From: a virus
DNA: 64,000 nucleotides
Reading direction: 5' to 3' (one strand)
Virus record (IMG/VR): IMGVR_UViG_3300012232_000011
Location: 17,196-81,195 of that record
Below, in pieces: positions 8,538 to 34,983 of the stretch. Positions within the stretch are counted from its first letter, which is position 1; each line of letters starts with the position of its first letter. A model generated the notes under the pieces. That model did no database searches. It saw nothing but the letters and a program-made list of their open reading frames with translations, and had not been told where the DNA came from. The position numbers and the translations under genes are program-made.

Positions 8538-8825
8538 ATGACGAGGCGGCTCGAACGGATCGCGGGTGCCGCGATCCTCGATGGTCAACAGATCGCGGAC
8601 ACGCTTCAGTGTTGCCATTGCGGCAGGCATTGGAACCGCAAGCCCGGATCGGGTACGGTTCGCGGCTTTTGTCTGAAGTGCTACGGCGTCACGTGCGGCG
8701 ATGAAGCCTGCTCGATCGAATGTAAACCGTTCGAGAAGTGGCTCGACGAAGTCGAAGCAAAGAACCGCATCCTCCTGGACCGGATGGAGCAAACCGCCGA
8801 GGGCATCTACATCGCGAGGCGGTAA
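8538..8825 (+). CDS. Cys-rich zinc-finger protein
   Basis: CCHC..FCLKC..TCG..C..C pattern. Confidence 0.7.
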   Translation: MTRRLERIAGAAILDGQQIADTLQCCHCGRHWNRKPGSGTVRGFCLKCYGVTCGDEACSIECKPFEKWLDEVEAKNRILLDRMEQTAEGIYIARR

Positions 8826-12766: not shown

Positions 12767-15700
12767 GTGGCAATCCCAACGAGATCCCTCGGAAAAGCCG
12801 CGTGGCAGTGGCAACCGCTGATCGACGCGCACGACCCGAACCCGCCGATCACGATCGAGTCGGCAAGCCTTCCGTTCGTCGAAACGCAACCAACACAACC
12901 CGTCCGCCCGAAGGCGCGAGCGCAGCAGCCTCCGCCGCTGTCCGCTCCTGTTCACCCTGTTGCCGTCCAGCTTGTGACGAATCAATCGGACGCGACGCTC
13001 GTCTGGCAGCGGACCGTCCAGTATCCCGCGCTTCAGGCTCCGGTGTTCGTCGACGCGGCTCCCGCTGTCACGACGATGGGATGGGACGCGCAAACCGCTC
13101 AGGTGTTCCCGCGCCTCGTTGTGCAACAACCTCCGCCAGTCGCCGAGCCTGTCTATGTCCCGTTCACTGTGATCAAGCTGAACGATTGGGATACGCCGCC
13201 CGTCGTCGTGCGTCCGCAGTTGAAGTTGGTTCCAGCGCAGCCGCCGTCACGCGCCGGGCCTGATCTCCCGTTCGCCACGCTCGCCGATGTCGAGTTCCCC
13301 GATTTCCACTCGCACGTCGGCCCCTGGAAGAGCGGCTCGAAATACTACGCCGCCTTCCGCCTCGTCGCTGATCCTTCCCAACTTGTCATCCTCCGCTCCG
13401 TAGGCGACCCGACCGACCAATCGACCTGGTCGTCCGTGTCGGACTTCATCGATCTCCCGAACACAATCGGTGCGCTCTGGACGTACCAGACGGCGGCGGG
13501 GATTCACGTCGCGGTTCAGGAAGCGGTGACGGGGCGGTTGTCCTATCACCTACTCTCGACAACGTCGGACTCCTGGACCCATCGCAACGTCGAAGTCGAC
13601 GTCCCCGCCGCGCCGAACCAATCCGGCGTATTGCTCGGCGTCAACGGTGCCGGGGATCTCTACTTCGGCTATCACGATCTGAACGTCGCATGGGACCGCC
13701 TGAATTATTCGACGCTCAACGGCGGAGTCGGCGGAGGACAGGACTTCGGCGTCGTGTTCGATCCGCTGAGCGGAGACAGCGTCGTCGCGGGTGCGCTCGT
13801 TGTCGATGCGAGCGACACCGCCCACTTCCTCTACTCCGTTCCGGATGATGGACTGATCGGCCATCGGTCGCTCGACACGGCGGACGCACTCGGCACGGCG
13901 CAAACCATCACGAACACCGCAGGCGGGACGGTTGGTAACGCGGTCATTTATGACAGCGGGGCGCCGCTCTTTATCAAGGTCGTCTATGACGACGCCGACG
14001 GGCGAATGTCGCAGGCGACCGGGATCGCGGCGGTCGATCCGACCTGGTCGATACAGACGGGCATCGGCGATCACCCGATGCTTCCGGGGATCTCCGATAT
14101 CGCCATCGACGTAAGCGGCTCGGAGCAAACGGTCCACCAGCTCTACATCCGCAATTCGGATCAGATGCTCTGGTCGGACTTCCAACCGCACGCCGAAGGC
14201 TTCGGGATCGACGTGTTCCGCGATCAGGGATCGACGATCTCGCGGTTGTCCGCGAATAGCTACATCCGGGCGACGCTGAAGGTCGCGTTCTTCTGGCAAC
14301 TGAACGGCGTCGTCGAGCCGACGTATGCGGAGTATGAGGCTCCGACTCCGCCGCACGCCGTGTTCCTCGAACACTGGAACCTGCCATCGGTACAGGTGCG
14401 ACGGCGGGTATGGGCGCAACAGCCTCCGGCGGAAGCGTCCCCGGTCTTCACTCCGGCTCCCGCGTTCGCCCCTGGACTGATCGACGTACAGCAGGCACAG
14501 ACGCGACTGCCGCGCCGGCCGCAACAGCCGCCGAGCGAGTCGCGCCCGGTTGCCACGATCCCCTCCACCTTCTTTGAAGTCTGGCGGAGCGTGATCGACC
14601 GCGTGTTCCCGAAGCGGATCGCACAACAGCCGCCGAGCCTGACAGCTCCGCCATTCATGCCGACGATCGATCAATGGTTCGCGCCTTCGGTTCAGGTGCG
14701 CCCGACCGTGCGCCGACAACAGCCGCCGAGCCTCACGGCTCCGGTCTTCACCGAGCATCCGCCGGAGACCTTTTTCGAGGATTGGCAACAGCCGATTGAT
14801 CGCCTGTTCCCGAAGCGGGTCGCCCAACAACCTCCCGCCGAAGCCGCTCCTCCACGGCAGCCGACCGTCGCGGAAACGCTCGCCTGGTTCGCTCCGTCCG
14901 TTCAGGTGCGACCGAAGGCACGACCGCAACAGCCGGCGAGCGAAGCGAAGCCCGAGGCGACGCTTCCCTCGACGTTCTTTGAGGCGTGGCGCGAGCCGAT
15001 TGATCGCCTGTTCCCAAAGAAGATCCCGCAACAGCCGCCGAGCGAGTCGGCGCCGCCGCGCCAGCCGACGGTCGCCGAAACGCTGGCATGGTTCGCGCCC
15101 ACGGTTCAGGTACGGGCGAAGATCCGGGCGCAACAGCCGGAAGCGACGCCGGGGATCGTGTTCACGCCGGCGGCGGCGCCGAGATGGTTCGAGACCCTCG
15201 TCGCGCAAGTGTTCCGCCGTCGGCACGTCCAGCAGCCGCCTGCCGAAACTGCGCCGCCGCGCCAGCCGACGGTCGCGGAGACCCTCGCGTGGCAAGCAGC
15301 GACGCAACAGGTACGCCCGAAAGCGCGAGCGCAGCAGCCTCCACCGCTGTCCGCTCCACCGCGCCAACCCAACGCGGCGGAGTCGATGGCATGGTTCGCC
15401 GCGACCGTACAGGAACGGCGAACGCCTGGACCGCAACAGCCGCCGAGCGAATCGGCGCCGGTGTTCACAGCTCGCGCCGCGCCGACGTGGTTTGAAACGC
15501 CTGCCGCCCTTCAGGTTGTGCGCCGTCCTGTTGTGCAACAGCCTCCTGCGGAGTCCGCGCCGCTCCGAGTGCGTCACAAGGGATCCGCGTCGCTATCCGG
15601 GCATGGCGATATGGAAGCCCGATGCCGGGTGGAGGAAGAGGAAGGCGGCGAAGATGGCGACGGCGACGGCGGCACACGGTTCCCGATCCCGCCGCCGCCC

Positions 15701-17053: not shown

Positions 17054-17262
17054 GCGACGACAAACGCGAGGCGCGAAAGCAAGAGATCCAGAACAAGGTG
17101 ATCGCGAAGTTACTCGCTCGCCTCGATGAGATCCTAGACGACCCGGAGATCCATTCCTTCACACTCCGGGCGACGTTTGGGCGTCGCGTTCCGGGAAGAG
17201 GTGAAAAGCACCCGCCTTTTGAACGGGTGCTGTTCACGAAGGAATGTGGAGACGATCACTAG
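17050..17262 (+). CDS. hypothetical protein
   Basis: MSDDKREARKQ..., ATGA-coupled; the 3' end of track ORF 16060..17262. Confidence 0.6.
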   Translation: MSDDKREARKQEIQNKVIAKLLARLDEILDDPEIHSFTLRATFGRRVPGRGEKHPPFERVLFTKECGDDH

Positions 17263-17909
17263 GCGTCGTCTTCGTCGGGCGGATCCTCGAATCCCAACGC
17301 CTTCAGCGTCGCCGGGAAGTCGAGGCGAGCCGCGAACCGCTGAATATCGAGGCGGAGATTCTCGGCGACTTCCTCGATCTTCATGGCGGCGTCGTCCGTG
17401 TTGACCGCGTCGTCGAGCGCACCCTCGATAAACTCCTGAACGATGGCGGACGTAAGCGGGGAGTCCGGATCGTGCAGTCCGTTGACTGTGTTCCAAATCT
17501 TCGCGAGCGCGTCTCGCCGCCTTCGCTGTTCGCCCTGAAAGTTGATCGCCATCGCGATCAACTTCGCGACCGCCGCCGCCGCCGCTTCCATCGTGTCATA
17601 CGTCGGCACGTCCACGCCCTCGTCGCCTTCGGAGCGGTACAGTCCGACAATGTAGGTGGGCTGCTCGTCGCCTTCGCCCTCGTTCGTGATGCACACGTTC
17701 GGGAAGGTGTCGCCGTCGCGCAGGTAGATGGTCGCGACCATCACGAACCCGCCCGTCTGCTCCACTTCGACGATGTACCCGACCTCGCGGCGGAGGTACT
17801 CGACGATCCCGTCGAGACCCTGAAGGGTCGCGGCGGAGGCGCAAGCCTCCGCCACTGGATCATACGCCGCCGCCCGGGAACCTTCCGCCGCTGGATCGTT
17901 CGTTGTCAT
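17259..17909 (-). CDS. hypothetical protein (antisense island 1)
   Basis: MTTNDPAAEG... with GGAGA RBS; GC3-rich. Confidence 0.75.
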   Translation of the reverse strand: MTTNDPAAEGSRAAAYDPVAEACASAATLQGLDGIVEYLRREVGYIVEVEQTGGFVMVATIYLRDGDTFPNVCITNEGEGDEQPTYIVGLYRSEGDEGVDVPTYDTMEAAAAAVAKLIAMAINFQGEQRRRRDALAKIWNTVNGLHDPDSPLTSAIVQEFIEGALDDAVNTDDAAMKIEEVAENLRLDIQRFAARLDFPATLKALGFEDPPDEDDA

Positions 17910-18046
17910 GCCGTCTCCTCCTCGTTGTGCTGTTCCTCGTTGTGCGCTTCCAAACATGCGGACGTGCAACAGGGCTGCTCGCACGACCCGCAATCGTTCG
18001 CGTCGGTGTAGGTGTTCTCTCCGCAATGTAAGCAGGGGAATGTCAT
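17906..18046 (-). CDS. small Cys/His-rich zinc-binding protein (island 1)
   Basis: MTFPCLHC..CGSC..CC..C..H; first gene after the promoter at 18059-18103. Confidence 0.7.
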   Translation of the reverse strand: MTFPCLHCGENTYTDANDCGSCEQPCCTSACLEAHNEEQHNEEETA

Positions 18047-18058: not shown

Positions 18059-18103
18059 CCTTCCTTCAGTTACAAATGTAACATCCGGCGGGGCGACTGT
18101 CAA
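18059..18103 (-). promoter_or_regulatory. conserved promoter-operator-RBS unit, copy A
   Basis: TTGACA-17-TACATT, palindrome GTTAC-N4-GTAAC at 18069-18082, then ACTGAAGGAAGG. Confidence 0.85.
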
Positions 18104-18136: not shown

Positions 18137-18204
18137 GCGGCTGCCCTCATACACCGCACGACGCCCCGGCTTGCCCTCCGGGGCGTCGTGCTACCCTCCG
18201 CCCT

Positions 18205-18504
18205 ATGGAACCCGACGAGGCGGACATCCTCCGTCTGGAAGCCGAGATCGATCAGGTTCGCGCCGCCATCGACGACCCGGACACGCCGACGGATGCCGAC
18301 CGGCACTTGCTGATCCATTGGCTTCACGAACAGACGGACCTCGGGCGGCTCCCGGATGGCCCGATCCCGGCTCGCCGCTGGTGGCTGCTTTCCGGTCGGG
18401 CGCACCTGATCGAGCGGATCCGCGTGGAATGGGCGGCGGAGGATCAGGGTTACGGAGCCGTCTGGATTCACGATGCCGCCTGTCCCGGGTGCCTGAACCC
18501 TTGA
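18205..18504 (+). CDS. hypothetical protein
   Basis: 99-aa GC3-rich ORF ending CPGC. Confidence 0.6.
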   Translation: MEPDEADILRLEAEIDQVRAAIDDPDTPTDADRHLLIHWLHEQTDLGRLPDGPIPARRWWLLSGRAHLIERIRVEWAAEDQGYGAVWIHDAACPGCLNP

Positions 18505-18530
18505 CAGATTGAAGCCGTCGGGAATACGCT
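18501..18530 (+). promoter_or_regulatory. sigma70-like promoter of leader element 1
   Basis: TTGACA-18-TACGCT, 12 nt upstream of the conserved leader. Confidence 0.65.
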
Positions 18531-18542
18531 AACCGGGACAAG

Positions 18543-18606
18543 CGAATAGGCTCTAGCACGCCGGAGATGCAGGGGCGGCGACCGATAAGGTCGCCGCCCC
18601 TTTTTC
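18543..18606 (+). ncRNA. conserved leader + intrinsic terminator (attenuator/small RNA candidate), copy 1
   Basis: 39 nt identical to 37062-37100; 12-bp GC stem 18572-18600 followed by a U5 tract. Confidence 0.8.
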
Positions 18607-18634
18607 ATTCGCCCGGCGATGGCGGGAACGCTTC

Positions 18635-20329
18635 ATGGAAACCGACGACACCGCCAACGGAACCGCGACGATCACGCCGCCGCCCGAGGCCCGCCGCCGA
18701 CCTGGACCCGTGACGCTCGAACAGGGCGTCAAAGGTATGCGCGACGCAATCGGCACGGTCGAGAGCGCGATGAAGGCCGGCGGGATCGACGACGCGAAGA
18801 TCGCGACGATGCTCGCGCCCTCGCTGGCGGTTGCGGAGAAGTGCGAGGCGGAGGCGGTTGCCTGGCGACCGTTCGGCGGCGCGACTTCGTTCGACGGGAT
18901 CGATTCGTTCCTCGAAGCGAACAAGCGACAGAGCGAGATCAACGAGCTGGCATACCAGTTCAACGAGATCGTTTACAACATCATGGCGGCGAACCCGGAG
19001 GAAGTAAGCCTCGAAGAGAAGGCGTCGCTCGTCGCGACCGCCGCCGGCGAATTGCGGACTCGGGTCGGACAGATCGATGCGTCGGCGAAATCCGCCGGCG
19101 GATTGCTCTCGAAGGTTGGCAACGCTGTCCGCCAATTCATCGCGCCGAAGGATGAGCCGGACACGCTCGGGTTCGATTACCTGAACGGCGATGGAACGAT
19201 TCGAGCGTTCAAGGACGACAGCGGCGCGTGGCGTTGGGTCGGGATCTGGTCGAACGCCTACAAGGACGACGAGGACGAAGTCTTTCCCCTCGAAGCTCAC
19301 AAAGAGTTCATCGGCTGGTGTGACAAGTCGGGACACATGCCGGAGTTGTGGGTCTGGCACATGCCGGGATCTCGCATGGGGATCGCGGACATGCTCGATA
19401 TCCACGAGGGCTTCACCGTCGCGACCGGAACCTTTGACAAGGGGATGGAGTCGGCGGCGGAGAAGTTCACGCCGGACGACCGCATGTCGCACGGGTTCCT
19501 GTACCGCATCGCTGATAAGGCGTCGGGCAAGTACCCGATCTACCGGACGTATGAACTCAGCGTCCTGCCCGGCGCGAGGGCGGGAAACAAACTCACGGGA
19601 TTCGCACCGCTAAGGGAGGCACTCACGATGGACGCGACGAAGGAAAAGTACGCACGCGAAAAGCTCGGGGACACCTTCGTGGACAACATGAAGGCCAACC
19701 TCGAAGGCGCACGCAAGGAACTCGAGACGAAGGGAGTCGCGATGTCGATCAAAGAGATCGCCGACTCCATCGTTGCGGATGGCGCGAAGCACGACGCCGC
19801 AGCTCCGGCTCCCGCGCAAGCGGCGGCGGCTGCGTCGTCGGCGGCTCCGCCGAACACCGACGCGGCAACGGCGGCGGCGGCGGCGGGAACCCAGGCTTCC
19901 TTGTCGGCGCCGCCGCCTGAGTCGGCTCCCGAAGCTGGCGGCGATAAGGCGATGGCCGACACGTTCGTCGCCGCGCTCGGCGCGAAGTTGACCGAGGCGG
20001 TCTCGCTGGCAACAAAGGACATCACCGACGGGATCGCGGAGATCAAGTCGACGATGGCGCAACACGGCGAGCAGTTGCTCGCGCTGAAGGAATCCGACGA
20101 CACGAAGATCGCGGCGGCGTTCGCTCCGCGGACCGCGCCCGTTGCGTCGGCGGTGAAGGGACAGGAGAAGGGCACCGAACCGCCGAAGTCGGTCGCCGAC
20201 GCCGCAAAGGAAGCCGACACCGCGACGCTCGGTGCCCTGACTGGCGTCGTGAAGGAGGGACCGCTCGGAGCCGTTGCCGGGTACATGGAGCAGGCTTTCG
20301 GCGGAAGGGTTCAGATCCCGAGCGCGTAG
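18635..20329 (+). CDS. prohead protease / scaffold fusion protein
   Basis: Lies directly before the major capsid gene. The central RWVGIWSNAYKD..EVF...PELWVWH...ELSVLP segment is HK97-protease-like, followed by an Ala/Pro-rich linker and a helical C-terminus. Confidence 0.75.
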   Translation: METDDTANGTATITPPPEARRRPGPVTLEQGVKGMRDAIGTVESAMKAGGIDDAKIATMLAPSLAVAEKCEAEAVAWRPFGGATSFDGIDSFLEANKRQSEINELAYQFNEIVYNIMAANPEEVSLEEKASLVATAAGELRTRVGQIDASAKSAGGLLSKVGNAVRQFIAPKDEPDTLGFDYLNGDGTIRAFKDDSGAWRWVGIWSNAYKDDEDEVFPLEAHKEFIGWCDKSGHMPELWVWHMPGSRMGIADMLDIHEGFTVATGTFDKGMESAAEKFTPDDRMSHGFLYRIADKASGKYPIYRTYELSVLPGARAGNKLTGFAPLREALTMDATKEKYAREKLGDTFVDNMKANLEGARKELETKGVAMSIKEIADSIVADGAKHDAAAPAPAQAAAAASSAAPPNTDAATAAAAAGTQASLSAPPPESAPEAGGDKAMADTFVAALGAKLTEAVSLATKDITDGIAEIKSTMAQHGEQLLALKESDDTKIAAAFAPRTAPVASAVKGQEKGTEPPKSVADAAKEADTATLGALTGVVKEGPLGAVAGYMEQAFGGRVQIPSA

Positions 20330-20371
20330 AACAACACGCCGCAACAGGCAAATCGAGGAAGGGGAGTCGTC

Positions 20372-21853
20372 ATGGTTCAGGAAGCAGAAGTGCTTGAGAA
20401 GTTCGCGGAGCTGTTGCTCCCCGCGCTCCGACAGGCGGGACGGAAACAGTACGGATACGCCGAAGGCATCGGTCTCGGTGCAAAGCACGACACCGGAGGC
20501 TCGCCGATTTCGGAGGGGTACATTCACGGACCCGGCGGCTCTCTCAGCTACCCGGGCGTCGACCCGCTCGTGTTCTCGGCGGAAGTCGGGAACATGGGGA
20601 TCATTGGCGAGCTGCCGACAAAGGCGTCGGTCGAGTCCAATCCGATCTTTGAAATCCTCACGGGTTTCCGCGACCGGAACGGGACGGAAAAGAACGGCGT
20701 CTGCGACGACGCGCCGACCGCCGGCTTCGCGAAGTTCGGCAAGATCACGAGCGTGTTCGGTCGGTACGAAAACGCAACGCCCGAGTTGGAGCTGAACCGG
20801 ATCGGTCTCCGCGTCAACCGTGGCGACCCGATGGATCTCCGCCTGTTCAATTCGCCGATCGCAACGAGCGGCCTGTTCGCGCAGGGACCGGGCGACCCGA
20901 CGAGCGTCGCCGCGATCCTCCAATCGGAGATCGCGATGAAGTTCAAGGAGCTGGGGACGGCGTTCCATCGCCAGTTGTCCGATCAGGTATGGACGGGCAA
21001 CCCGGGGAACAACACGGGCGGCGGCGGGTACAAGGAATTGACCTCGTTCCCGCTTCTGGTCAACGACGGATACATCGACGCCGAGACGGGCGTCCCGCTT
21101 CCGTCCGTCGATTCGACCATCGTGAATTACAACAGCGGACGGATCGACCTGGACGGGACGCGCATCGTTCACTTTATGACGTACCTCTACCACGTCAAAA
21201 AGGATCGGGCGATGCGAGCCGGCATGCCGACGGTTCGATGGGTGTACGCGATGCGCCCCGAGCTGTTTTGGGAAATGACGAACGTCTGGCCGTGCGCGTA
21301 CCTGACTTACCAATGTCAGGTCACGGGCAATCAGCGCGTGAACATCAACGCCGCCGATCAGATCGCGCTGCGCGATGCGATGCGAGCCGGCTCGTATCTC
21401 CTGGTCAACGGCGACCGCGTCGAAGTGATTCAGGACGACGGGATCCCGTTCGACTCGAACACGACGGCGCAGGGAGTCACGCCCGGCTGCTTCCGGTCGA
21501 ACATCTACCTGATCCCGATGAGCGCGGGGACGCAAGCCGTCACGTTCCTGGAGTACATGGACTACCAGAACGGGGACATCCAGCGCGCTCTGGAAGGGAC
21601 GAACCTGATCCTCGCTAAGGTCGAGGGCGCGTTCCTCACGTGGCCGCGCCAGACCAATCAGTGCGTACAGTGGCAATCGAAGATCGAGCCGCGCCTCGTC
21701 ATGCGAACCCCGTGGCTCGCGGGGCGGATCGACAACATCCAGTACTGCCCGGCGATCAACCCGGCGCAGCCGTTCCCGAACGACCCGTACCACGTCAACG
21801 GCGGCGGGTCGAGCCGACAGGGTCCCTCGCTGTTCAATCAGTGGGCGGCGTAA
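20372..21853 (+). CDS. major capsid protein
   Basis: 493 aa with strong RBS, after protease/scaffold, followed by a strong terminator; GNP.NN..GGYKE motif region. Confidence 0.8.
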   Translation: MVQEAEVLEKFAELLLPALRQAGRKQYGYAEGIGLGAKHDTGGSPISEGYIHGPGGSLSYPGVDPLVFSAEVGNMGIIGELPTKASVESNPIFEILTGFRDRNGTEKNGVCDDAPTAGFAKFGKITSVFGRYENATPELELNRIGLRVNRGDPMDLRLFNSPIATSGLFAQGPGDPTSVAAILQSEIAMKFKELGTAFHRQLSDQVWTGNPGNNTGGGGYKELTSFPLLVNDGYIDAETGVPLPSVDSTIVNYNSGRIDLDGTRIVHFMTYLYHVKKDRAMRAGMPTVRWVYAMRPELFWEMTNVWPCAYLTYQCQVTGNQRVNINAADQIALRDAMRAGSYLLVNGDRVEVIQDDGIPFDSNTTAQGVTPGCFRSNIYLIPMSAGTQAVTFLEYMDYQNGDIQRALEGTNLILAKVEGAFLTWPRQTNQCVQWQSKIEPRLVMRTPWLAGRIDNIQYCPAINPAQPFPNDPYHVNGGGSSRQGPSLFNQWAA

Positions 21854-21874
21854 CACCGAAAACCCTAACAGCGG

Positions 21875-21910
21875 GAAAGGGGCGGATCACTCGATCCGCC
21901 CCTTTCGTTT
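21875..21910. terminator. bidirectional intrinsic terminator
   Basis: Perfect 14-bp stem GAAAGGGGCGGATC-ACTC-GATCCGCCCCTTTC between the convergent capsid gene and island 2. Confidence 0.85.
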
Positions 21911-21927
21911 GTGTCCGTCGCGCTCGG

Positions 21928-22299
21928 TTAGCGTGTACGCAGCGCGGTCTCCCAATCCTCCCGGGTGTAGATGCGGAGCGTTCGACCGTCCGGGTTGGCG
22001 GCGGTCGCCTGCGTGTCATTCACGCACACGTACCAACCGCGATCATCGCGGGACAGTCCGTGGGCGTCGTATGCATCGTTGCGCCCGTCCGTGTCGATCA
22101 TATTCGCGAGGGCGGTCGCGTCGTCGCGGGTGATCTCGTTGTCTTCCTCAATCTGGAATCGCACCTTGTACCGCTTGCCCTCGTACACGGCGGCGAAGTC
22201 GCAATCGACCTCCGCCGTCTCGATCAGGGATTCGTCGGCTGCGTCGATCACGTTCAGCAGCCACTCGGTGATTTCCTTTTTCGTCGTCGCTTCTATCAT
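21928..22299 (-). CDS. hypothetical protein (island 2)
   Basis: 123-aa ORF with GGAGG RBS. Confidence 0.7.
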   Translation of the reverse strand: MIEATTKKEITEWLLNVIDAADESLIETAEVDCDFAAVYEGKRYKVRFQIEEDNEITRDDATALANMIDTDGRNDAYDAHGLSRDDRGWYVCVNDTQATAANPDGRTLRIYTREDWETALRTR

Positions 22300-22346
22300 G
22301 GGTTACGCCTCCGGTGTTCATCGTTCGCCGCAATAACGTTCACGGT

Positions 22347-22517
22347 TCAGGCTTCGTCGTTCGTCGTCACCGCCTTTCCGTTCACGCGGAACACCTGACA
22401 GGGGCACCGCCGCTCGTCCAGCGGGTCGGCGTTCAGGTAGGCGTTGCACACGTAGCGGAGATCGTGATCGGCGCATCGGTGGCCGCAATCGCAGAGCGTG
22501 TCCGGTGTTGGTCGCAT
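22347..22517 (-). CDS. small Cys/His-rich protein (island 2), not in the ORF track
   Basis: MRPTPDTLCDCGHRCADHDLRYVC...RCPCQVF..., 56 aa, RBS GGAGGCGTAACC. Confidence 0.65.
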   Translation of the reverse strand: MRPTPDTLCDCGHRCADHDLRYVCNAYLNADPLDERRCPCQVFRVNGKAVTTNDEA

Positions 22518-22520
22518 CGG

Positions 22521-23036
22521 TTACGCCTCCGTCCGGTGTAGGTGGATCCAGTCCGCCCCGAGGCGCACGACCCGCGCACCCTCGGGCACGTCGTTCACGA
22601 TACGACCGACCGCGCCCTCGCGTGTCATGTAGTGACGCCGCAACGTCTTCAAGTCCTGCATGCCGTCAAAGTCCGCGCCCTGAAAGCGAGCGGCGAGCGG
22701 CGCGACTGCGACCGTCGGAGGATCGCCGATCCAGCGAACGTCGATGCTCGCGCCCATGCTGTACGTGCGCGAGCGGACGCTGAACCGAACGTCGGGAAAC
22801 TCGCGCCGCAATTCATCGCGAAGCAGAGCGGCGACGACGGAACACTTCAGGTGCTGCGCCGTCTGAGGCTCGCCATATCCGCAGGCGTTCTCTTGTTTGC
22901 GGTCGAACGCCCATGCGTTGTCGCCGACGCTGTTCAGGTGGTTCCAGTTGTGCGACGACGCGCTCCGCCCGATCACCCGTCCGCATTTCGAGCATAGGGT
23001 GACGCTGCCCGGGATGATATCGATCAAGTCGTTCAT
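22521..23036 (-). CDS. LPD29-like (large polyvalent protein-associated domain) protein with an N-terminal CxxC
   Basis: LRREFPDVRFSVRSRTYSMGASIDVRW..GADFDGMQD resembles the LPD29 pattern. Confidence 0.75.
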   Translation of the reverse strand: MNDLIDIIPGSVTLCSKCGRVIGRSASSHNWNHLNSVGDNAWAFDRKQENACGYGEPQTAQHLKCSVVAALLRDELRREFPDVRFSVRSRTYSMGASIDVRWIGDPPTVAVAPLAARFQGADFDGMQDLKTLRRHYMTREGAVGRIVNDVPEGARVVRLGADWIHLHRTEA

Positions 23037-23039
23037 TTG

Positions 23040-23341
23040 TTAGATCGCTCCAAACTGAGGAAGCCGTCCCTCGTTAGCCGCATCGCGCTCGGTGCGACCG
23101 CTGAAGCGGATCGCCGCGACGGGTTCGCCGTTGCCATCTTCGATCACGAAGCCGTCGGCTGCTCGCTTCGCGTAGGAAACCTCGCGACCGCCGAACGCCC
23201 TCATGATCGCTGCCGCTGTCTCGCCCCGGACGAAATCGCGGAGCCGTGCCGGGAGTTGCGCTCGATGAACCCGACAGCCTTGCGGGTGCATCCGTCCGCG
23301 CTCTCTACTATCACTTCGTACCGGGTTGGTTCGGTCGTCAT
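23040..23341 (-). pseudogene. 100-aa hypothetical gene split by a 1-nt deletion (mutation, assembly error or recoding)
   Basis: MTTEPTRY...ERNSRHG continues as LRDFVRGETA... in another frame; adding one G near 23243 gives 303 nt = 101 codons. Confidence 0.6.
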
Positions 23342-23350
23342 GGTTTGTGT

Positions 23351-23398
23351 CTCCCTTCCTTCAGTTACAAATGTAACATAGCGGGCGGAGGAAGTCAA
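23351..23398 (-). promoter_or_regulatory. conserved promoter-operator-RBS unit, copy B
   Basis: TTGACT-17-TACATT, palindrome at 23364-23377, then ACTGAAGGAAGGGAG. Confidence 0.85.
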
Positions 23399-23436
23399 GA
23401 GGTATCTTGACGCCCGGAAGCGACCCGGCGAACGTG

Positions 23437-23615
23437 GCCGACTGAGTCGGCGGACAAGGGAGCGCGGGGCGTTTCTCCTCCGGCGGCGGCGGGACGCGGA
23501 TGATCACCCGCCGCCGCCACTCCCGATAGACTGGCAAACAGGCGGGGCCTTGCGGACTTCAACCCGCCAGCGGTTTTCGGATGGACGCCGGGCGGGGAGC
23601 CCGGCGTTTGTCTTT
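23437..23615 (+). ncRNA. structured intergenic RNA candidate ending in a terminator-like hairpin
   Basis: Hairpins at 23437-23451, 23482-23518 (12-bp stem), 23541-23568 and 23584-23608, followed by TTTGTCTTT. Confidence 0.45.
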
Positions 23616-23711
23616 GGAATTGGCATAACGCCGCGCCACAACCGCGATCCGTGTGATATCGTTTGACCGCGTCGCCGCGGGAGCCTGGACCGCGTCGGGC
23701 TTCTATTCACC

Positions 23712-24707
23712 ATGCTCAAAGGTCGAATCCTGATCACGGGCGGCGCCGGGTTCCTCGGTCGCGCCATCCTCCGTCGCATCGAACGCGAGGGCTGGCCAGC
23801 CGAAGTTACGATCTACTCCCGCGACGAACACAAGCAGGATGAGATCCGGAAGCGTTGGCCCGGCGTGCGTCGCATCCTAGGAGACGTGCAAAACTTCGAC
23901 CGCCTGCACGGTGTTCTGTCCGAGCATCGATACGATCTGGTCATTCACACCGCCGCGCTCAAGTTCATCCCCGAGGGCGAACTGAACGTGAACGAGTGCG
24001 TCGACGTGAACATCATCGGATCCCGCGCCGTCGCGCTCGCCGCCATCGCCAGCGAAGTGCCGACGGTTGTCGGGCTTTCGACGGACAAAGCGGCGGCGCC
24101 GCTGAACACTTACGGAATGACGAAGGCGATCATGGAGCGGGTGTTCGCGGAGCTGAACCGACAGAGCGCGACGCGCCTTGTCTGTGTCCGGTATGGCAAC
24201 GTCTGCTCTTCCTCCGGCTCGGTTGTGCCGCTGTTCCGGGAACAGTACGCACGGACCGGCAAGGTCTCGATCACGTCGCCGGAAATGACGCGGTTCTGGC
24301 TCACGAATGACGATGCGATCGATATGATCACGACAGCGGCGGACAACGCGCAACGCTACCCGGGCGGCGTGTTCGTGCCGCGCTGCGGTGCGATGCATAT
24401 CGGCGCGGTCGCGGTCGCCGCTGTCCCCGAGTTGGACGCGACCGGCATCGAAGTTGTCGGCTTGCGTCCTGGCGAAAAGCTGCACGAGGTGCTGTTGCTT
24501 GCGGCGGAAACTCCGCGAGCGACGCCCGTGTTCCCGAAGCGTTCACAGTACGCGGTCTCGGTGATCGCGCCGCCGAACCTTCCCGAACACTTCGGCGCAA
24601 TTCAGGGCGAGGCGTCTGAATACCGGAGCGACAACCCGGCATCGTGGATCAGCGTCGAACAGTTCCGCGAGTGGATCGCGGATGCGGAGGAGGTGCTGCA
24701 TGGCTGA
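23712..24707 (+). CDS. UDP-GlcNAc 4,6-dehydratase/epimerase (CapD/FlaA1/PseB/WbjB family)
   Basis: ITGGAGFLG, YSRDEHKQ, HTAALK, LSTDKA, YGMTK, VRYGNV..S.GSVVPLF, MTRFW and RPGEKLHE motifs. Confidence 0.93.
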   Translation: MLKGRILITGGAGFLGRAILRRIEREGWPAEVTIYSRDEHKQDEIRKRWPGVRRILGDVQNFDRLHGVLSEHRYDLVIHTAALKFIPEGELNVNECVDVNIIGSRAVALAAIASEVPTVVGLSTDKAAAPLNTYGMTKAIMERVFAELNRQSATRLVCVRYGNVCSSSGSVVPLFREQYARTGKVSITSPEMTRFWLTNDDAIDMITTAADNAQRYPGGVFVPRCGAMHIGAVAVAAVPELDATGIEVVGLRPGEKLHEVLLLAAETPRATPVFPKRSQYAVSVIAPPNLPEHFGAIQGEASEYRSDNPASWISVEQFREWIADAEEVLHG

Positions 24708-24954
24708 GAAGGGCGACGGGCGAAAGGTACAGGCGGACGCGGACGACGCTGCCGCGACCGCGGAGGATCAGGCGAAGGCGGCGCTGGAAGAGGCGAACTT
24801 CCAGAAGTCACTCGTCAACGCCGAACGCCTGGGCGCAATCGACGGGAAGCGCATCGGCGTGCTGATCAACACGATCAACGCCCAATCGAAGACCGCGCTC
24901 ACGCCGGATGAACTAACGCAGATCGTCTGTTCCTATCTGAGTGCAACGAAATGA
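24700..24954 (+). CDS. hypothetical helical protein
   Basis: MAEKGDG..., 84 aa, overlaps both neighbours. Confidence 0.65.
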   Translation: MAEKGDGRKVQADADDAAATAEDQAKAALEEANFQKSLVNAERLGAIDGKRIGVLINTINAQSKTALTPDELTQIVCSYLSATK

Positions 24955-25784
24955 ACATCACCGTAGTCGGCGCGGAAGGGATGCTCGGGCGAGCGGTCGC
25001 GGACGAAGCGACCAACGCCGGGCACGCCGTATCGCGCATCGGCCACGACTCCTTCGACATTGCCGACGGTCACCCGTGGTCGCGCGGGACCGTCGATGTT
25101 GCGATCAACTGTGCGGGGATGCGCCCGGGCACGGGCGAGTGGGGATCGGAGATGATCCGGACGAACGCGCTCGGCCCGCACCGACTCGCCGAAGACCTCG
25201 GGCTTGTCGGGATCAAACTGATCCACGTGTCAACGGATTGCGTTTTCAACGGCTCGCGCTCCGATTGGTCGGGCGGGTACGAAGTCGAGCGAGCCGCCGA
25301 CGCCATCGACCTGTACGGTCGCTCGAAATCCGCCGGCGAACTGATAGGCGTCGAAGGTTGCCGCACGATCCGGACTTCGTTCATTGGCCCGAACCACGGG
25401 CTGCTCGGTTGGCTGCTCACTGAGGCGCGGAAGGGAACACCCGAAGTTCGCGGATATTGGGCGTCGCTGTGGGGCGGTTCAACCGTGTGGGAAGTCGCTC
25501 GCGGCATCGTGAAGGAAGCGGAGTGGTTCGCGAAGGATCATGCCGCCCGGCACGTGATCAACGGGATCGTACATCTGGCGACGGAGGAACCGCAGCGCAA
25601 GTACGACGTCGTCGCCGCGCTCGTCGATGCGCTCGATCTCCCGCTCCGCGTGCGAGCTGTTCCGGAGCCGAAGATCAACCGGGCCCTCGAGCCGACTGAA
25701 GGGCGGGTGCTCCGCCCCGTGATTGGGATCCTGCCGGAACTGGTCGAGCGAGTGCGAGCGTATGATGGCAAATCCCGCCCATAG
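24951..25784 (+). CDS. RmlD-like NDP-4-keto-6-deoxysugar reductase
   Basis: VVGAEGMLG, INCAG, LIHVSTDCVF, YGRSKSAGE and IRTSFIG motifs. Confidence 0.9.
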   Translation: MNITVVGAEGMLGRAVADEATNAGHAVSRIGHDSFDIADGHPWSRGTVDVAINCAGMRPGTGEWGSEMIRTNALGPHRLAEDLGLVGIKLIHVSTDCVFNGSRSDWSGGYEVERAADAIDLYGRSKSAGELIGVEGCRTIRTSFIGPNHGLLGWLLTEARKGTPEVRGYWASLWGGSTVWEVARGIVKEAEWFAKDHAARHVINGIVHLATEEPQRKYDVVAALVDALDLPLRVRAVPEPKINRALEPTEGRVLRPVIGILPELVERVRAYDGKSRP

Positions 25785-26118
25785 CCACCCCGTGTTTCAG
25801 ATGATGCCCTCGGGCGCAATCGCCCGGGCCTGGTGGCCGGAGTTGTGCGCCGCGTGCGCCGCTAGCGAGACCGCGCCGACGGACACGTACCCGCGACCGC
25901 TCACTCACTACCACGACGGACCCTACGGCTTGACCTTCGCGCCCGTCGCCGGATGCAACGGCTGCGAGCATGAAAAGCGCAACGAGGACGGAACCGTGGG
26001 ACCGTTTGACGCTTACGAAGGCGGCAGCGCGGACTGCCCGATCCGGGTCTTCCCGATGGTTACCTGGTTCGACTATTTGGAGTGGCGCACCGCCCGCGCC
26101 GGAAAGGTTGCACGATGA
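25762..26118 (+). CDS. hypothetical Cys-containing protein
   Basis: MMANPAH...; CxxC pairs. Confidence 0.55.
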   Translation: MMANPAHSHPVFQMMPSGAIARAWWPELCAACAASETAPTDTYPRPLTHYHDGPYGLTFAPVAGCNGCEHEKRNEDGTVGPFDAYEGGSADCPIRVFPMVTWFDYLEWRTARAGKVAR

Positions 26119-26837
26119 AGGATCCGATTATGAACGAGGCGAGCGCGAGCGCGATGATCTGTCCGGAGTGCCCGGTTTCAATGTCCGTCGTGATCGCGCC
26201 GACGAATGACCGCACCTATCGGCATGGCGATCACCAGATCACGTTCACAGCTCGCGACCTGGCCGAGCAACATGATCCGATCACCTATATGCGGGACACG
26301 TTCAACGAGTGGCACGCGAAGGTGCTGCCGACGCTTCCGAAGGATGTCGGAATCATCGCCGACTTCGCCGAGTTGCGCTCCGCTCCGGATCCGAACGCCA
26401 TCGACGTGATCGAAGTGGCGGAGGCGGGAGCGAAGCGAGCGAACAAACTGCTCGCCGCCGGCTGGAAGCTGTTGAACGTCGGCGTCACGACAACCGACCG
26501 GACGCGACCGGACGGGCAACCGACGATGGCGCGGCGCACGACCTACGCGCTCGGTCGACCGCCCGGCGTCCTGCCTGAAGTGTTCGAGGAAGAGCGCACT
26601 TCGCCGCCGTCCATCGCGAACCAACACGCGGCCCGGCCGCGCATGATGCTGGTGGGCGTCGAGGGCGATATCTTCCATATCCACCAGTGGCGCGAGGATT
26701 GCGACGTGCGCGGGTGCATCGTGGCAACGGAGGAAATGATCAACGACGAACACGCGAGGCTCGACGCGCTCCGCTCGACGACCGCGCCGGAGCGCGTCGA
26801 GCCGGAGCGTCCGAAGGATGGAAGGATGCACGAATGA
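26115..26837 (+). CDS. hypothetical protein
   Basis: ATGA-coupled; CPEC near the N-terminus. Confidence 0.6.
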   Translation: MKDPIMNEASASAMICPECPVSMSVVIAPTNDRTYRHGDHQITFTARDLAEQHDPITYMRDTFNEWHAKVLPTLPKDVGIIADFAELRSAPDPNAIDVIEVAEAGAKRANKLLAAGWKLLNVGVTTTDRTRPDGQPTMARRTTYALGRPPGVLPEVFEEERTSPPSIANQHAARPRMMLVGVEGDIFHIHQWREDCDVRGCIVATEEMINDEHARLDALRSTTAPERVEPERPKDGRMHE

Positions 26838-27628
26838 AGATCACCGTCGCGATCCCCGTCGGTCCGTTCCCGGCGAACAAGCAATGGTTGCCCGAGTGCC
26901 TCGCGAGCGTCGCCGCACAGACGCGACAGGCGGACGAGGTTCTGCTGATCGACGATATGGCGGGCCTCGGAATGACCGACCTCAAGCCGCTCCGGATCGA
27001 CGGCGACCGCTGCACGGAAGGACCCGCCTTCATGGGGCACTCGGGATCGTTGTGCGTCACGCACCTTGAGCGCGTCGCCGCCGACAGGGACGAGGAATCC
27101 GCCGGAACGTGGTGGCGAACCTTCGCCCGGATCTGGCGGTCGCCGTGGCGGTTGGGCGTCGGCGCGGCCTTTAACGCCGGCGTGGGCCTCGCCTTCGGCG
27201 ATTGTGTGTTCATGCTCGGGAGCGACGACACGCTCGAACCTCAATGCCTGGCAATGTGCGAGGAGGAGTTTCACGCGATGCGCGGTGCCGACGCCTACTA
27301 CTACGTCGATCTGCGCTACAGCGACGGACGCCCGGATCAGTCCGTCCCGTGCAACGCGGCGATGGTTACGAAGGGCTTCTGGCGAAAGTCCGGCGGGTTC
27401 GCTCCGGAGTCCGGGTCGGGTGCGCCGGACGCCGCTCTGATCTCCGCGATGATGGTCAACGATCCGGACTCGCTCGTCCGCGTCCAATCGCCGTCGCCGC
27501 TGTACGTGTACCGGGTACACGAGGGCACCGACACGGCGGGGCGCGAGCGATGGCAGGGGATCATCCTCGAAACCCGGGACATACTCACCGAGACCTGGAC
27601 CGCGCCGAAGTGGGGGAGGGTGGTATGA
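26834..27628 (+). CDS. GT-A fold (GT2-like) glycosyltransferase
   Basis: ITVAIPVG..LPECLASVAAQT..EVLLIDD; LGSDD DxD-like motif. Confidence 0.8.
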   Translation: MKITVAIPVGPFPANKQWLPECLASVAAQTRQADEVLLIDDMAGLGMTDLKPLRIDGDRCTEGPAFMGHSGSLCVTHLERVAADRDEESAGTWWRTFARIWRSPWRLGVGAAFNAGVGLAFGDCVFMLGSDDTLEPQCLAMCEEEFHAMRGADAYYYVDLRYSDGRPDQSVPCNAAMVTKGFWRKSGGFAPESGSGAPDAALISAMMVNDPDSLVRVQSPSPLYVYRVHEGTDTAGRERWQGIILETRDILTETWTAPKWGRVV

Positions 27629-27825
27629 ACGTGAAGATGGCGGAGGCGTTGATCGAAGCGATAGACGCGCTGCGTTGGGATATCCGCGGCGTCGCCGCTT
27701 TGAGCGATCCCGGAACGGTCTTCAGCGACAACCCTCGCATCGCGGCGCGGGAGGCGTTCGCCAATTCGGACGCGAGCATGAAGCGTGCGCGACATCTGTT
27801 GAAATTGTTCGAGGCGAAGCAATGA
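27625..27825 (+). CDS. hypothetical protein
   Basis: MNVKMAEAL..., ATGA-coupled on both sides. Confidence 0.55.
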   Translation: MNVKMAEALIEAIDALRWDIRGVAALSDPGTVFSDNPRIAAREAFANSDASMKRARHLLKLFEAKQ

Positions 27826-28184
27826 TCATCGTTGGCGCGATCCTCGGGTTGATAGGAGCGGTCGGAATCGCCGCCCTGTTCGGGTACATCATCGGATGGC
27901 AGCTAGGGCGAGTCGAAGAGCGGGAGCGGATCGTCGCCTATGTGCAGTTGCGCTACCGGGTGCGCTTCCAGAAGTCGATGGGTCGCCCGGACAATATGGA
28001 GCAGGGATATCAGGACGCGCTCGGAGCGGTCGCCGATCAGATCGAAAGCGGACACGCCTCGCTGCATCGCGCTCGCTGGTACGAGTCCGCGCCGCCCGGC
28101 GGTGCGAAGGTGCTTCATCACGTCGACGACTCCTACGGCTCCGGCGTCGGGACGCCTCCGCCTAGCGAGCGACCGCCCCTATGA
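27822..28184 (+). CDS. membrane-anchored hypothetical protein
   Basis: N-terminal hydrophobic segment MIIVGAILGLIGAVGIAALFGYIIGW. Confidence 0.6.
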   Translation: MIIVGAILGLIGAVGIAALFGYIIGWQLGRVEERERIVAYVQLRYRVRFQKSMGRPDNMEQGYQDALGAVADQIESGHASLHRARWYESAPPGGAKVLHHVDDSYGSGVGTPPPSERPPL

Positions 28185-28783
28185 GTTGTCCAGCGCACGA
28201 CCTTGCGGACTCGCGCCGCCTGTTGACCCGCGAGGATGTCGATTGCCTGCAACGCCTCGCGCTCCGGCTCCCCGGGCGCGGCGTTGTGTTGGAGTTGGGC
28301 GCGGGTTCCGGGACGAGCGCACTCGCGATCCTCTGCGTGCGCCCCGACCTCATGATCGTGTCCGTCGATATCAGCGAAGAGGCGATCCATTCGACGGCGG
28401 AACTTTTGAGCAACGCCGCCGATCAACGCTTCATCATGCGCCCGGACACGTGCTGGCGCGGCGTGATCGCCGATTCGTGCGACGTCGTCGCCATCGCCGA
28501 TCCGATGGCCGATATCAAGTCGGGTACGCCGGACGCGCTGCTGATCGATTCCTCGCACGAACTCGAGGCAACCCGGCGCGAGCTGGACACGTGGCTCCCG
28601 GCGCTCCGCTCGCACGGGCACGTGTGGGCGCATGATTACGACGCGGCGGCGGCGGTAGCGCAGGGCATCGACGCGTATCCCGGCGTCGGCACCGCGATCG
28701 ATGAAGCGGTCGCTCTCGGGCGGCTCGTGACGGGCGGCGTCGAGGGCCTCGGCTGGTGGGGATGGACGCCGAAGCGACGATGA
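28181..28783 (+). CDS. class I SAM-dependent methyltransferase (Methyltransf_24-like)
   Basis: VLELGAGSG, VSVD, LLIDSSH and HDY motifs. Confidence 0.85.
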   Translation: MSCPAHDLADSRRLLTREDVDCLQRLALRLPGRGVVLELGAGSGTSALAILCVRPDLMIVSVDISEEAIHSTAELLSNAADQRFIMRPDTCWRGVIADSCDVVAIADPMADIKSGTPDALLIDSSHELEATRRELDTWLPALRSHGHVWAHDYDAAAAVAQGIDAYPGVGTAIDEAVALGRLVTGGVEGLGWWGWTPKRR

Positions 28784-28989
28784 ACAAACGCGAACCGCGC
28801 CCCGTGCTGAAGATCATCCTGACCGTGTTCGAGACGGGGGACTATGCGGAGGAACAAATCCGGCGCGACGTGCGACGCCTCGTTGGAGCGCGTGGCGCGA
28901 TCACCCGGTTGCTCGGGCACACGTACCTGCTCGACGTGGCGCCGCCGGGCGGTCGGTTGCAAGGCGACACGCAGACGGAGGCGCGATGA
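28780..28989 (+). CDS. hypothetical protein
   Basis: MNKREPRP..., ATGA-coupled. Confidence 0.5.
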   Translation: MNKREPRPVLKIILTVFETGDYAEEQIRRDVRRLVGARGAITRLLGHTYLLDVAPPGGRLQGDTQTEAR

Positions 28990-29705
28990 ACAACGAGCGA
29001 CCGCCGATCACTATCGTGGTCACGACCTATTTCCCGGACGGAGCGGAGGCACGGATCGCGACCGCGCTCCGCACGTTGGCGAGTTGGCGCGAGCATCTCC
29101 GGTACGAGGGCGAGATCAAGATCGAGATTTGCGACGATGATTCGCCCGAGGATATGTCGCTGCTCTTCCGTCGCGGTCTCGAAAGCGATCCGCCTGGCTA
29201 CTGGCGCGAATGGCGATGCTCGGGATCGACGCACCTTCGCGCCGGCGTCGGCTCGTCGCTGAACTCCGGCATCGCAACGTGCAAGGCGTCCGGCTCGCTC
29301 ATGCTGTACGCCGTCGACGACTGGCGGATCGATGCGCCCTTCGACCTCACGCCCTGGGCGGACGTGCTGATCGAAAACAGCACCGTCGGCTGCGTGCGCT
29401 TTTTCCCGCATCCGCACCTGCGCGGCGGTCGCATCCTGAACTTCCGAACAGGTTGGGCGGTTGAGTTCGAGCGCGTCGGATTCTATTGGGCGCAACGCCC
29501 CGCCCTGTACCACATGCGGTTTTTTGACTACTACGGCGGCTTTCCTGAGAACGTATCCGCGCTCGACGTGGACGAGATTTACAACGCGAACATATGCCAC
29601 GCGCACCCAATGTCCCCGAAGGTGATCCTCGCGCTCCCGCAAGCCTGGACGCCCGACGAATCCGATACGGTTCCCCTCGGACATCTCGTCCCGGAGCGAC
29701 GATGA
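28986..29705 (+). CDS. GT-A fold glycosyltransferase
   Basis: ITIVVTTY, ICDDDS, SLNSG and YAVDDW motifs; paralog of 30952..31656. Confidence 0.75.
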   Translation: MNNERPPITIVVTTYFPDGAEARIATALRTLASWREHLRYEGEIKIEICDDDSPEDMSLLFRRGLESDPPGYWREWRCSGSTHLRAGVGSSLNSGIATCKASGSLMLYAVDDWRIDAPFDLTPWADVLIENSTVGCVRFFPHPHLRGGRILNFRTGWAVEFERVGFYWAQRPALYHMRFFDYYGGFPENVSALDVDEIYNANICHAHPMSPKVILALPQAWTPDESDTVPLGHLVPERR

Positions 29706-30616: not shown

Positions 30617-30921
30617 CGATTCCGCGCCTGGTGCGCGAGGAAGTGTTCGAGCGGGACCAATGGACGTGCCAATACTGTCTGAACAAACCGGCGAAGGTGA
30701 TCGATCACCTGGTACCGGGTGCGCTCCGCCGCTATCACCGACTGAACCACGACCGCGCTCCGGATTTCCTCACGGCATCCTGCGTCGATTGCAACCTCCG
30801 CAAACTCACACACCGACTCGTCCCGGCGAGCCGGGCGCATATGATCCCCCAACTCCCCGGCGCGAAGCCGTGGCGCGTATGGGACGGGACGCTCGCACAG
30901 TTTCGGCTGCTTGTCGCTTAG
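30613..30921 (+). CDS. HNH endonuclease
   Basis: REEVFERDQWTCQYC..IDHLVP..SCVDCNLRK. Confidence 0.85.
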   Translation: MTIPRLVREEVFERDQWTCQYCLNKPAKVIDHLVPGALRRYHRLNHDRAPDFLTASCVDCNLRKLTHRLVPASRAHMIPQLPGAKPWRVWDGTLAQFRLLVA

Positions 30922-30924
30922 TCG

Positions 30925-30933
30925 TGTTAGAAT
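30925..30933 (+). promoter_or_regulatory. extended -10 promoter candidate
   Basis: TG-T-TAGAAT in the gap after the HNH gene. Confidence 0.45.
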
Positions 30934-30951
30934 CTGGACGCGGAGGATAGC

Positions 30952-31656: not shown

Positions 31657-31862
31657 AGGCCACGGAGCGAGCATGGGCAGCGGGATTCATCGACGGCGAA
31701 GGCTGCGTGAGAATCTCTCGCCGCCGCGCCAAAACGCGAGGATACGGCAACGTCGTCCATATGGCGGAAGTATCGGTGGCTCAGGTCGATCCGTCGCCCC
31801 TGATCAAACTGCAAGTACTCTACGGCGGACGGCTGCTACGGTCGAGAAAGGCGAGCGCGTGA
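31653..31862 (+). pseudogene. truncated LAGLIDADG homing endonuclease
   Basis: AWAAGFIDGEGCVRI..VSVAQ..L..LYGG, but only 69 aa, about half of a single-motif enzyme. Confidence 0.7.
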
Positions 31863-34981: not shown

Positions 34982-34983
34982 CG

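Follow-up and report, generated by a model that had tools for sequence, protein, structure and literature searches.

A three-copy promoter-leader-terminator unit before late gene modules of an uncultured sediment phage: candidate antitermination gates

Introduction

How does a phage come to express late genes that stand directly behind strong terminators? The question is raised by a 64,000-nucleotide stretch of IMG/VR virus record IMGVR_UViG_3300012232_000011 (hereafter the window), in which a short leader motif, associated with promoter elements and followed by an intrinsic terminator, recurs before the capsid genes, the tail genes and a module of probable lysis genes. The window comprises bases 17196-81195 of a complete 81,526-bp phage genome, and coordinates are those of the window unless they are marked as genome coordinates. 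Timing of late genes by antitermination is a textbook mechanism, but the cases in which it is understood are limited to a small number of lambdoid Q proteins, N, AlpA and some others, nearly all of them from Proteobacteria.

As described below, the promoter-leader-terminator unit is real and present in three copies. The gaps between the terminators and the next genes are too short to hold another promoter, and downstream expression therefore needs read-through; because the late genes are reachable only through the terminators, the units can be regarded as gates. We consider the chances about even that they are regulated antitermination gates working by a lambda-Q-like logic and opened by a hypothetical phage factor.

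Architecture of the repeated unit

A preliminary description of the window had reported a leader motif in three copies, each followed by a GC-rich terminator and a T-run, and this was borne out. The motif ATAGGCTC-N5-CGCCGGAGATG has three exact matches (0 mismatches), all on the plus strand, at 18546-18569 (unit 1), 37065-37088 (unit 2) and 50703-50726 (unit 3), and no further copy exists in the full genome; the expected number from shuffled sequences is 0.02 on average, and 0 of 100 shuffles reached three. In the alignment, the unit spans about 70 nt. It opens with a semi-conserved ACAA(G/C)C; box 1 (ATAGGCTC) and box 2 (CGCCGGAGATG), which are separated by a 5-nt spacer, come next, and after two further bases the unit closes with a GC hairpin of 11-13 bp and a T-run. 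The motif of unit 2 is the same as that of unit 1; unit 3, rightly called diverged in the preliminary description, keeps boxes 1 and 2 intact and has four of its five spacer bases changed.

The intrinsic terminators, also on the plus strand, occupy 18571-18605, 37091-37123 and 50729-50761 in units 1, 2 and 3, respectively. They are formed by a 13-bp hairpin at 18571-18601 (-30.9 kcal/mol) followed by TTTTT, a 12-bp hairpin at 37091-37119 (-25.8 kcal/mol) followed by TTTT, and an 11-bp hairpin at 50729-50756 (-22.4 kcal/mol) followed by TTTTT. In the apical pair of the stem, the C-G of copy 1 corresponds to U-A in the other two copies, and because the change is compensated it supports the hairpin. 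Each of the three motifs adjoins its hairpin at a fixed distance, and the next start codon follows the T-run after about 30, 31 and 18 nt in units 1, 2 and 3; the range of 18-31 nt agrees with the placement of about 20-30 nt before the first genes of late modules that had been claimed.

Pattern searches on the plus strand place a promoter, TTGACA-18-TACGCT, at 18501-18530 before copy 1 and another, TTGACG-18-TAACCT, at 37023-37052 before copy 2, and a -10 hexamer of the same type, TACCCT, is found at 50678-50683, 19 nt before the motif of unit 3. The full pattern TTGAC[AG]-18-TA[AC][CG]CT has just two sites in the whole genome, which are those upstream of copies 1 and 2. The -10 type TA[AC][CG]CT is itself rare (41 sites on both strands, or 0.009 expected per 35 nt) and precedes each of the three copies, all of which are therefore promoter-associated. 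With the looser pattern TTGAC[AGT]-N16-19-TAnnnT, 11 sites are obtained in the genome, including the two that lie 12-15 nt before copies 1 and 2 and about six that belong to an early cassette. The promoters of these two copies had thus been recognized correctly; the gaps of 9-12 nt given for them had been counted from a point 3 nt further upstream, and the -10 hexamer is separated from the ATAGG of the motif by 15 nt in copy 1 and 12 nt in copy 2. The distance from promoter to motif varies by 7 nt between the copies and that from motif to terminator is constant, and the promoter spacers of the units have no common sequence in the alignment. On the basis of the -10 type and the suboptimal 18-nt spacer, we propose that the gate promoters are weak promoters of the sigma70 type.

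Conservation of the motif among the three copies

A stretch of 39 nt is the same in copies 1 and 2 (18543-18581 and 37062-37100), and Logan unitigs from the source run break precisely at this repeat. Such an identical stretch could be the product of gene conversion, which leads to an explanation without any switch, namely that the units are a duplicated cassette for insulation and dosage, in which a terminator of partial efficiency, a constitutive promoter and a 5' hairpin set the amount of structural-protein mRNA and perhaps stabilize it, with the motif maintained through gene conversion, or else for a role in processing or as an enhancer of translation. The short T-runs of 4-5 T agree with this explanation, as does the finding, described below, that most relatives have no element before the tail gene. 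Repeated regulatory cassettes (promoter early stem-loops, PeSLs) that mediate the shuffling of modules are known in T4-type phages and likewise speak for it.

The distribution of differences among the copies points elsewhere. Over 71 positions, the first two copies show 12 differences, which are confined to the 5' flank, loop, apical pair and tail; the 26-nt motif is spared (P = 0.002 for random placement), as is the rest of the stem. Copy 3 has five differences in the motif, four of them in the 5-nt spacer and one just 3' of box 2, and both boxes are untouched. That the differences skip the motif and yet hit the loop amid the otherwise identical stretch points to a motif kept by selection rather than to a simple conversion tract. 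Nor does the motif appear to be a passenger of the hairpin, because the strong 14-bp terminator that closes the capsid unit (21875-21906, plus strand) has a related stem, GGGGCGG..ATC, and is devoid of the leader motif; with a covariance model of the unit, it scores only 15.7 bits. In addition, a promoter placed before terminators of -26 to -31 kcal/mol would be wasteful unless read-through were controlled. We therefore regard a cassette that merely insulates and doses as improbable, and if the units should prove not to be regulated, they would still be a clear case of a phage insulating and dosing its capsid and tail genes. The terminator at 21875-21906 faces convergent early genes on the minus strand.

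Folding of the leader and the question of a riboswitch

The preliminary description had suggested that the leader forms a CUC(U/C)/GGAG hairpin and that its CGCC pairs with GGCG of the terminator as an anti-terminator or pseudoknot, and neither structure withstood comparison with shuffled sequences. Segments containing the leader only fold with -4.8 to -6.3 kcal/mol (z = -0.8 to +0.5 against shuffles), leader plus 5' arm of the terminator with about -12 kcal/mol (z about 0), and the folding of full units is dominated by the terminator hairpin. The 4-bp CUC(U/C)/GGAG helix and the CGCC/GGCG pairing are no better than those in shuffles, as any GC-rich sequence offers such pairings. The leader folds contain neither a hairpin like the ribonucleic antiterminator (RAT) nor dual hexaloop hairpins. 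Rfam 15 has no match in the whole window at the gathering score, and at E <= 10 the sole overlap on the plus strand at the three loci is Chloroflexi-1, with 20.4 bits against the 80 called for; the earlier statement that no known riboswitch can be matched is thus upheld.

A ligand-sensing riboswitch is unlikely, because the leader folds like shuffled sequence, the alternative pairing is at chance level and Rfam is empty. Taken together with attenuation by a leader peptide, such a device is credited with a very small probability. It would account for the terminator, which could be its expression platform, and for the AUG in box 2. The leader, however, is too short and without structure for a riboswitch, with only chance-level matches in Rfam, and GGAG directly abuts the AUG with zero spacing; the frames after this AUG differ in all copies, comprising a long open reading frame (ORF) in copy 1, seven codons in copy 2 and one codon in copy 3, and the leader-peptide idea was dropped for this reason. 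The motif is better read as a recognition signal for a protein or for RNA polymerase, which would act in DNA or in single-stranded RNA. Accordingly, of the two proposals made at the outset for the gating of the late genes, a ligand switch in an RNA of about 65 nt and a target for a Q/N-like antiterminator, the first is set aside, and a gate working by antitermination or attenuation is the natural reading, with which a Q-like target is compatible. Readings of the motif as a sigma54 promoter (the arrangement is GG-N9-GC rather than N10) or as a T7-like or extracytoplasmic-function (ECF) promoter were considered by eye and dropped.

How the gates may be opened

In the model that we favor, each copy would be a self-contained late unit with a weak promoter, a leader of about 65-70 nt and a strong terminator. 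Without the factor, host RNA polymerase would initiate, make a short RNA and stop, leaving the capsid, tail and lysis-type genes off, and the terminators would also insulate these genes from upstream transcription. A phage factor made earlier would read the leader motif, whereupon the polymerase would pass the terminator. The preferred version is Q-like: the TAGGCT of box 1 would be a sigma-dependent pause element, with a pyrimidine-G pause step supplied 10 nt beyond TAGGCT by the first bases of box 2, and the factor would load on the paused complex and suppress formation of the hairpin. The parts of this model that we infer from the sequence are termination in vivo, pausing and read-through, together with the factor itself and its identity.

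Several features of the motif are consistent with such a pause. TAGGCT is invariant in all three copies, is located at about +8 to +15 (about +11 to +16 in unit 1 and +8 to +13 in unit 2), has the A2 and T6 of a -10 element and shares the form TAnnCT with the -10 hexamers of the gates' own promoters. C-G steps follow 7 and 10 nt past TAGGCT in all three copies. For the lambda PR' promoter, the distances of the initial capture and of the scrunched pause past the -10-like element have been described (PMC9191641), and the spacing from TAGGCT to the C-G steps appears to match them. The layout of the motif, in which a variable stretch separates two conserved ones, would likewise fit a pause element and a pause site with a non-specific gap between them.

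The resemblance to the lambdoid Q/PR'/tR' cassettes (Q-lambda, Q21 and Q82) extends to the whole unit. As in these cassettes, a sigma70-type promoter (only a -10 in unit 3) is followed by an intrinsic terminator within about 70 nt and then by the late genes, a -10-like hexamer occurs early in the transcript with a pyrimidine-G step about 10 nt on, a small gene has its end at the unit 1 promoter, and a short terminated RNA would be expected without the factor. The lambda Q gene also ends at PR' (bioRxiv 10.1101/651190). Unlike the lambdoid cassettes, the phage has three units rather than one and encodes no domain of the Q-lambda/Q82 family, there is no clear binding element before the pause-like hexamer, and conservation is strongest between the hexamer and the terminator, which it abuts. 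A further difference is the phage itself, a siphovirus from sediment with 64% GC.

Outside this group, AlpA of Pseudomonas aeruginosa brings about antitermination at two separate loci through a binding element between -35 and -10 (PMC7969949, PMC9371919), and BrrG, a Q21-like protein that needs a -10-like element and has a long leader, gates the capsid gene cluster of the Bartonella gene transfer agent (bioRxiv 10.1101/2024.11.20.624540). In both systems, as proposed here, a small factor takes RNA polymerase past terminators just downstream of its target promoters. In contrast to the AlpA system, the phage has no AlpA-family domain and its promoter spacers share no sequence that could correspond to the binding element; in contrast to BrrG, the leader before the hairpin is about 35 nt rather than long. 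Antitermination at multiple loci (AlpA; PMC7969949) and the gating of capsid genes (BrrG) are thus known from other systems, which speaks for the model.

Several points weigh against regulated gates of this kind. The -35 of unit 3 is poor (TAGCGA, 50654-50659, 18-nt spacing), and with T-runs of this length termination may be partial. No clearly conserved DNA is found upstream of TAGGCT, where a Q-binding element would be placed, apart from the semi-conserved ACAA(G/C)C, and the pause model leaves the 3' half of box 2 (GGAGATG) without an explanation. If antitermination were processive, the motif of unit 3, which lies downstream of unit 2, would be needless. Selection on the motif is deduced from three copies only, with no motif-bearing relatives, and no RNA run that contains the phage was found. 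Finally, searches of the complete genome in six frames found no Q-lambda/Q82, AlpA, ANTAR, CAT (co-antiterminator), Com or Ogr domain. PF03589 (Antiterm) and PF06530 (Phage_antitermQ) had no match at E <= 1 in a search that did not cover the Q21 family, PF05930 (AlpA family) and PF03123 (CAT RNA-binding domain) had no match, the best score for PF03861 (ANTAR) was 12.1 bits, in a minus-strand frame, against a cut-off of 27.3, and the Com and Ogr families were matched by nothing, small zinc-ribbon ORFs included.

Some of these points would be met by antitermination that acts locally at the RNA level, in which a phage RNA-binding protein on the single-stranded nascent motif would block the adjacent hairpin only, following the logic of RAT/LicT, HutP and ANTAR. 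The distance from motif to terminator, invariant in 3/3 copies beside a promoter distance that varies by 7 nt, is what such a mechanism would demand; every gated terminator has its own motif, including that of unit 3, with unit 2 upstream of it in the same orientation; the motif, being without structure, would be accessible as RNA; no conserved element precedes TAGGCT, and the rest of box 2 falls outside the pause model. Several small zinc-ribbon ORFs follow early promoters. The targets of BglG/SacY/LicT (RAT), HutP and ANTAR proteins are similarly conserved RNA elements on the 5' side of a terminator that are repeated for each regulated unit; these elements are, however, defined hairpins or triplet repeats, whereas the motif of the phage is unstructured, and no CAT or ANTAR domain is present in the phage. 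Local action is further disfavored by the lack of any CAT_RBD or ANTAR domain at the cut-off, of a Com-type ribbon and of a RAT-like or dual-hexaloop hairpin, by the possibility that the constant spacing stems from duplication, and by the promoter-type -10 kept before 3/3 copies, which a purely RNA-level site would not need. We consider local action of this type unlikely, though worth keeping in mind.

The cis sites of lambda N (nut) and HK022 (put) also lie in early transcribed RNA, occur in multiple copies and switch polymerase to read-through. Box 1 includes GCUCU, a sequence that is also present in boxA. In contrast to these sites, the leader has no boxB-like hairpin and no two-hairpin put fold, and its motif is fused to the terminator instead of acting at a distance.

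A further explanation regards the short transcripts themselves as the product, that is, as three sibling phage small RNAs with a 5' single-stranded seed, the downstream genes being served by leaky read-through. Like terminator-ended small RNA genes, the units have their own promoter, a short unstructured 5' region (conserved, about 33 nt), a hairpin and a U-tail, which is standard small-RNA architecture. Lambdoid PR'-tR' units also release a short RNA. On the other hand, a position 18-31 nt before late genes of the same direction that have no other promoter is unexpected for free-standing small-RNA genes, and the phage genome contains no perfect complement of box 2, the best antisense match having one mismatch and being no more frequent than on the sense strand. 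Small RNAs as the purpose of the units are accordingly given a low probability.

Returning to antitermination, a more specific proposal is that of an undescribed system, in which a phage-encoded orphan protein outside the Q, N, AlpA, CAT and ANTAR families would read a bipartite signal of 24-26 nt abutting the terminator, either as single-stranded RNA or as a sigma-pause module, and thereby open three gates; this we put forward tentatively and with more doubt than confidence. If the gates are real, the motif could serve as a short bait (24-26 nt of DNA or RNA) in finding a new family of factors, one gate per module would be an alternative to a single processive switch, and the unit would offer a portable and tight off-switch for GC-rich hosts.

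Candidate factors

A scan of about 70 ORFs revealed neither a phage RNA polymerase nor a sigma factor. The only positional candidate for a regulator is the orphan 99-amino-acid gene P0271 (18205-18504, plus strand), which public pipelines call as a gene. Its stop codon and the -35 of unit 1 overlap, and its candidacy is by position only, the placement being that of lambda Q relative to PR'. P0271 has no homologue and no Pfam or PHROG match, and its AlphaFold2 (AF2) model is unusable (predicted local distance difference test, pLDDT, 57). The two adjacent orphan proteins, P0271 among them, are both without homologues, and their structure models are of low confidence (pLDDT about 55). P0271 has no Shine-Dalgarno sequence, and a perfect 13-bp GC hairpin at 18158-18192 directly precedes its start codon; this hairpin could control its translation.

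Small Cys-rich or zinc-ribbon ORFs of 55-95 amino acids are encoded at 58120-58287, at 22347-22517 (minus strand), at 8538-8825 and at genome coordinates 14166-14453, two of them in early-promoter islands, and are possible nucleic-acid-binding regulators. Further early ORFs that could encode the factor are those at 17259-18026 and 22521-23036, both on the minus strand.

Early promoters

The promoters of these early islands constitute a class distinct from the TA[AC][CG]CT class of the gates. In the minus-strand islands, they take the strong form TTGACA-17-TGTTACATT, and as a class, they are described by TTGAC(A/T/G)-17-(T/A)TGTTAC(A/C)TT, a strong promoter with an extended -10 that is present in six copies. 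Four of these are in the window, at 18075-18103, 23370-23398 and 57832-57860 on the minus strand and 58063-58091 on the plus strand, and two are at genome coordinates 13251-13279 (plus strand) and 13165-13193 (minus strand). Every copy drives a small island of genes, and three of these islands are on the minus strand within the late region.

Gene order and the modules behind the gates

The phage comes from a freshwater sediment metagenome, is uncultured and has no relative in culture; its genome has 64% GC and 123-bp direct terminal repeats, and nearly all of its genes are on the plus strand. The gene order begins with the small and large terminase and a 1280-amino-acid protein that ends in a MuF/SPP1 gp7-like domain, continues with a prohead protease/scaffold-like gene, an HK97-fold capsid gene and a glycosylation block, and ends with a beta-propeller protein, chaperone-like genes, the tape measure, large tail proteins and four membrane or lipoprotein genes. 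The ten proteins around the elements are all singletons at 90% identity.

The assignment of the three copies to capsid, tail and lysis modules, as made in the preliminary description, is supported by structure and sequence features for the first two and is plausible only for the third. Unit 1 is followed on the plus strand by the genes of a 564-amino-acid prohead protease/scaffold-like protein (18635-20329), which has 2262 homologues, and a 493-amino-acid HK97-fold major capsid protein (20372-21853); both identities rest on ESM Atlas features and structure, with template modeling (TM) scores of up to 0.76 to capsid protein clusters. The first gene after unit 2 (37155-38660, plus strand) encodes a 501-amino-acid protein with a C-terminal BNR/Ycf48-like beta-propeller, which takes the position of a major tail protein, with the chaperone-like genes and the tape measure (39561-43217) following. 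Unit 3 is followed by genes for proteins of 91, 108 and 166 amino acids with hydrophobic segments and a 603-amino-acid protein with a lipoprotein-type signal (50781-53697, plus strand), which are a probable lysis cassette; no lysin domain was recognized in the four genes.

Relatives and comparable cassettes

As far as public data show, the motif appears to be lineage-specific. Megablast and blastn against GenBank phages gave no match, an exact scan of IMG/VR for the motif found none, and scans of IMG/VR with single proteins found no close relatives. An exact scan of metagenomes of the Joint Genome Institute (JGI) returned five matches, which all lie within coding sequence without a terminator and were dismissed as chance. 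The nearest homologues of the 501-amino-acid protein reach at most 55% protein identity, and a profile scan with the tail protein yielded 46 IMG/VR loci and three contigs of metagenome-assembled genomes (MAGs; Ardenticatenales, Methanothrix and one uncultured), none of them more than 49% identical. At the majority of related loci, the preceding gene extends to the ribosome-binding site (RBS) of the tail gene without any intergenic element. A covariance model of the three copies, run against 1.4 Mb of relatives (77 loci), gave hairpin-level matches only and no diverged copy.

Contigs of four sediment runs show that close relatives do exist in nature, as small, low-coverage, unassembled pieces. 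Between 12% and 33% of the k-mers are contained in sediment runs with related phages. Runs X2-X4, which are three other sediment metagenomes from different studies, contain short low-coverage contigs that are 93-99% identical over 18300-37300 of the window, and one 268-nt contig of run X4 covers unit 2 with four substitutions and two gaps.

Cassettes of the same architecture and with sequence unrelated to the motif are found in two distant relatives, a recurrence that speaks for the gate model. In G002 (24660-24900, minus strand, inside L069), an extended -10 promoter, TGGTATAAT, is followed by a leader of about 50 nt, which contains another -10-like hexamer, then by a 16-bp terminator ending in T6 and finally by the RBS of the protease/scaffold gene. 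In G007 (26230-26480, minus strand, inside L081), the tail gene lies behind a 15-bp terminator that is reached from a consensus promoter, TTTACA-17-TATAAT, through a short leader. The more distant G006 (inside L089) has a repeated hairpin and T-run, followed by a common RBS-start AAGGAGAATGAA..ATG, before minus-strand genes at about 24456-24488 and 28949-28984 (minus strand).

The homologues of the 501-amino-acid protein on L092, L093 and L094 are on MAG contigs that include Ardenticatenales (Chloroflexota) and Methanothrix and may be binned phage contigs; their labels are a weak hint to the host range of the phage group.

Within the window, one more hairpin is found before an operon. It is located at 23582-23610 (-22.4 kcal/mol, with a weak T-run), in a 675-nt gap and about 100 nt before the glycosylation operon, which starts at 23712; it has no leader motif and may be a fourth gate of a different kind.

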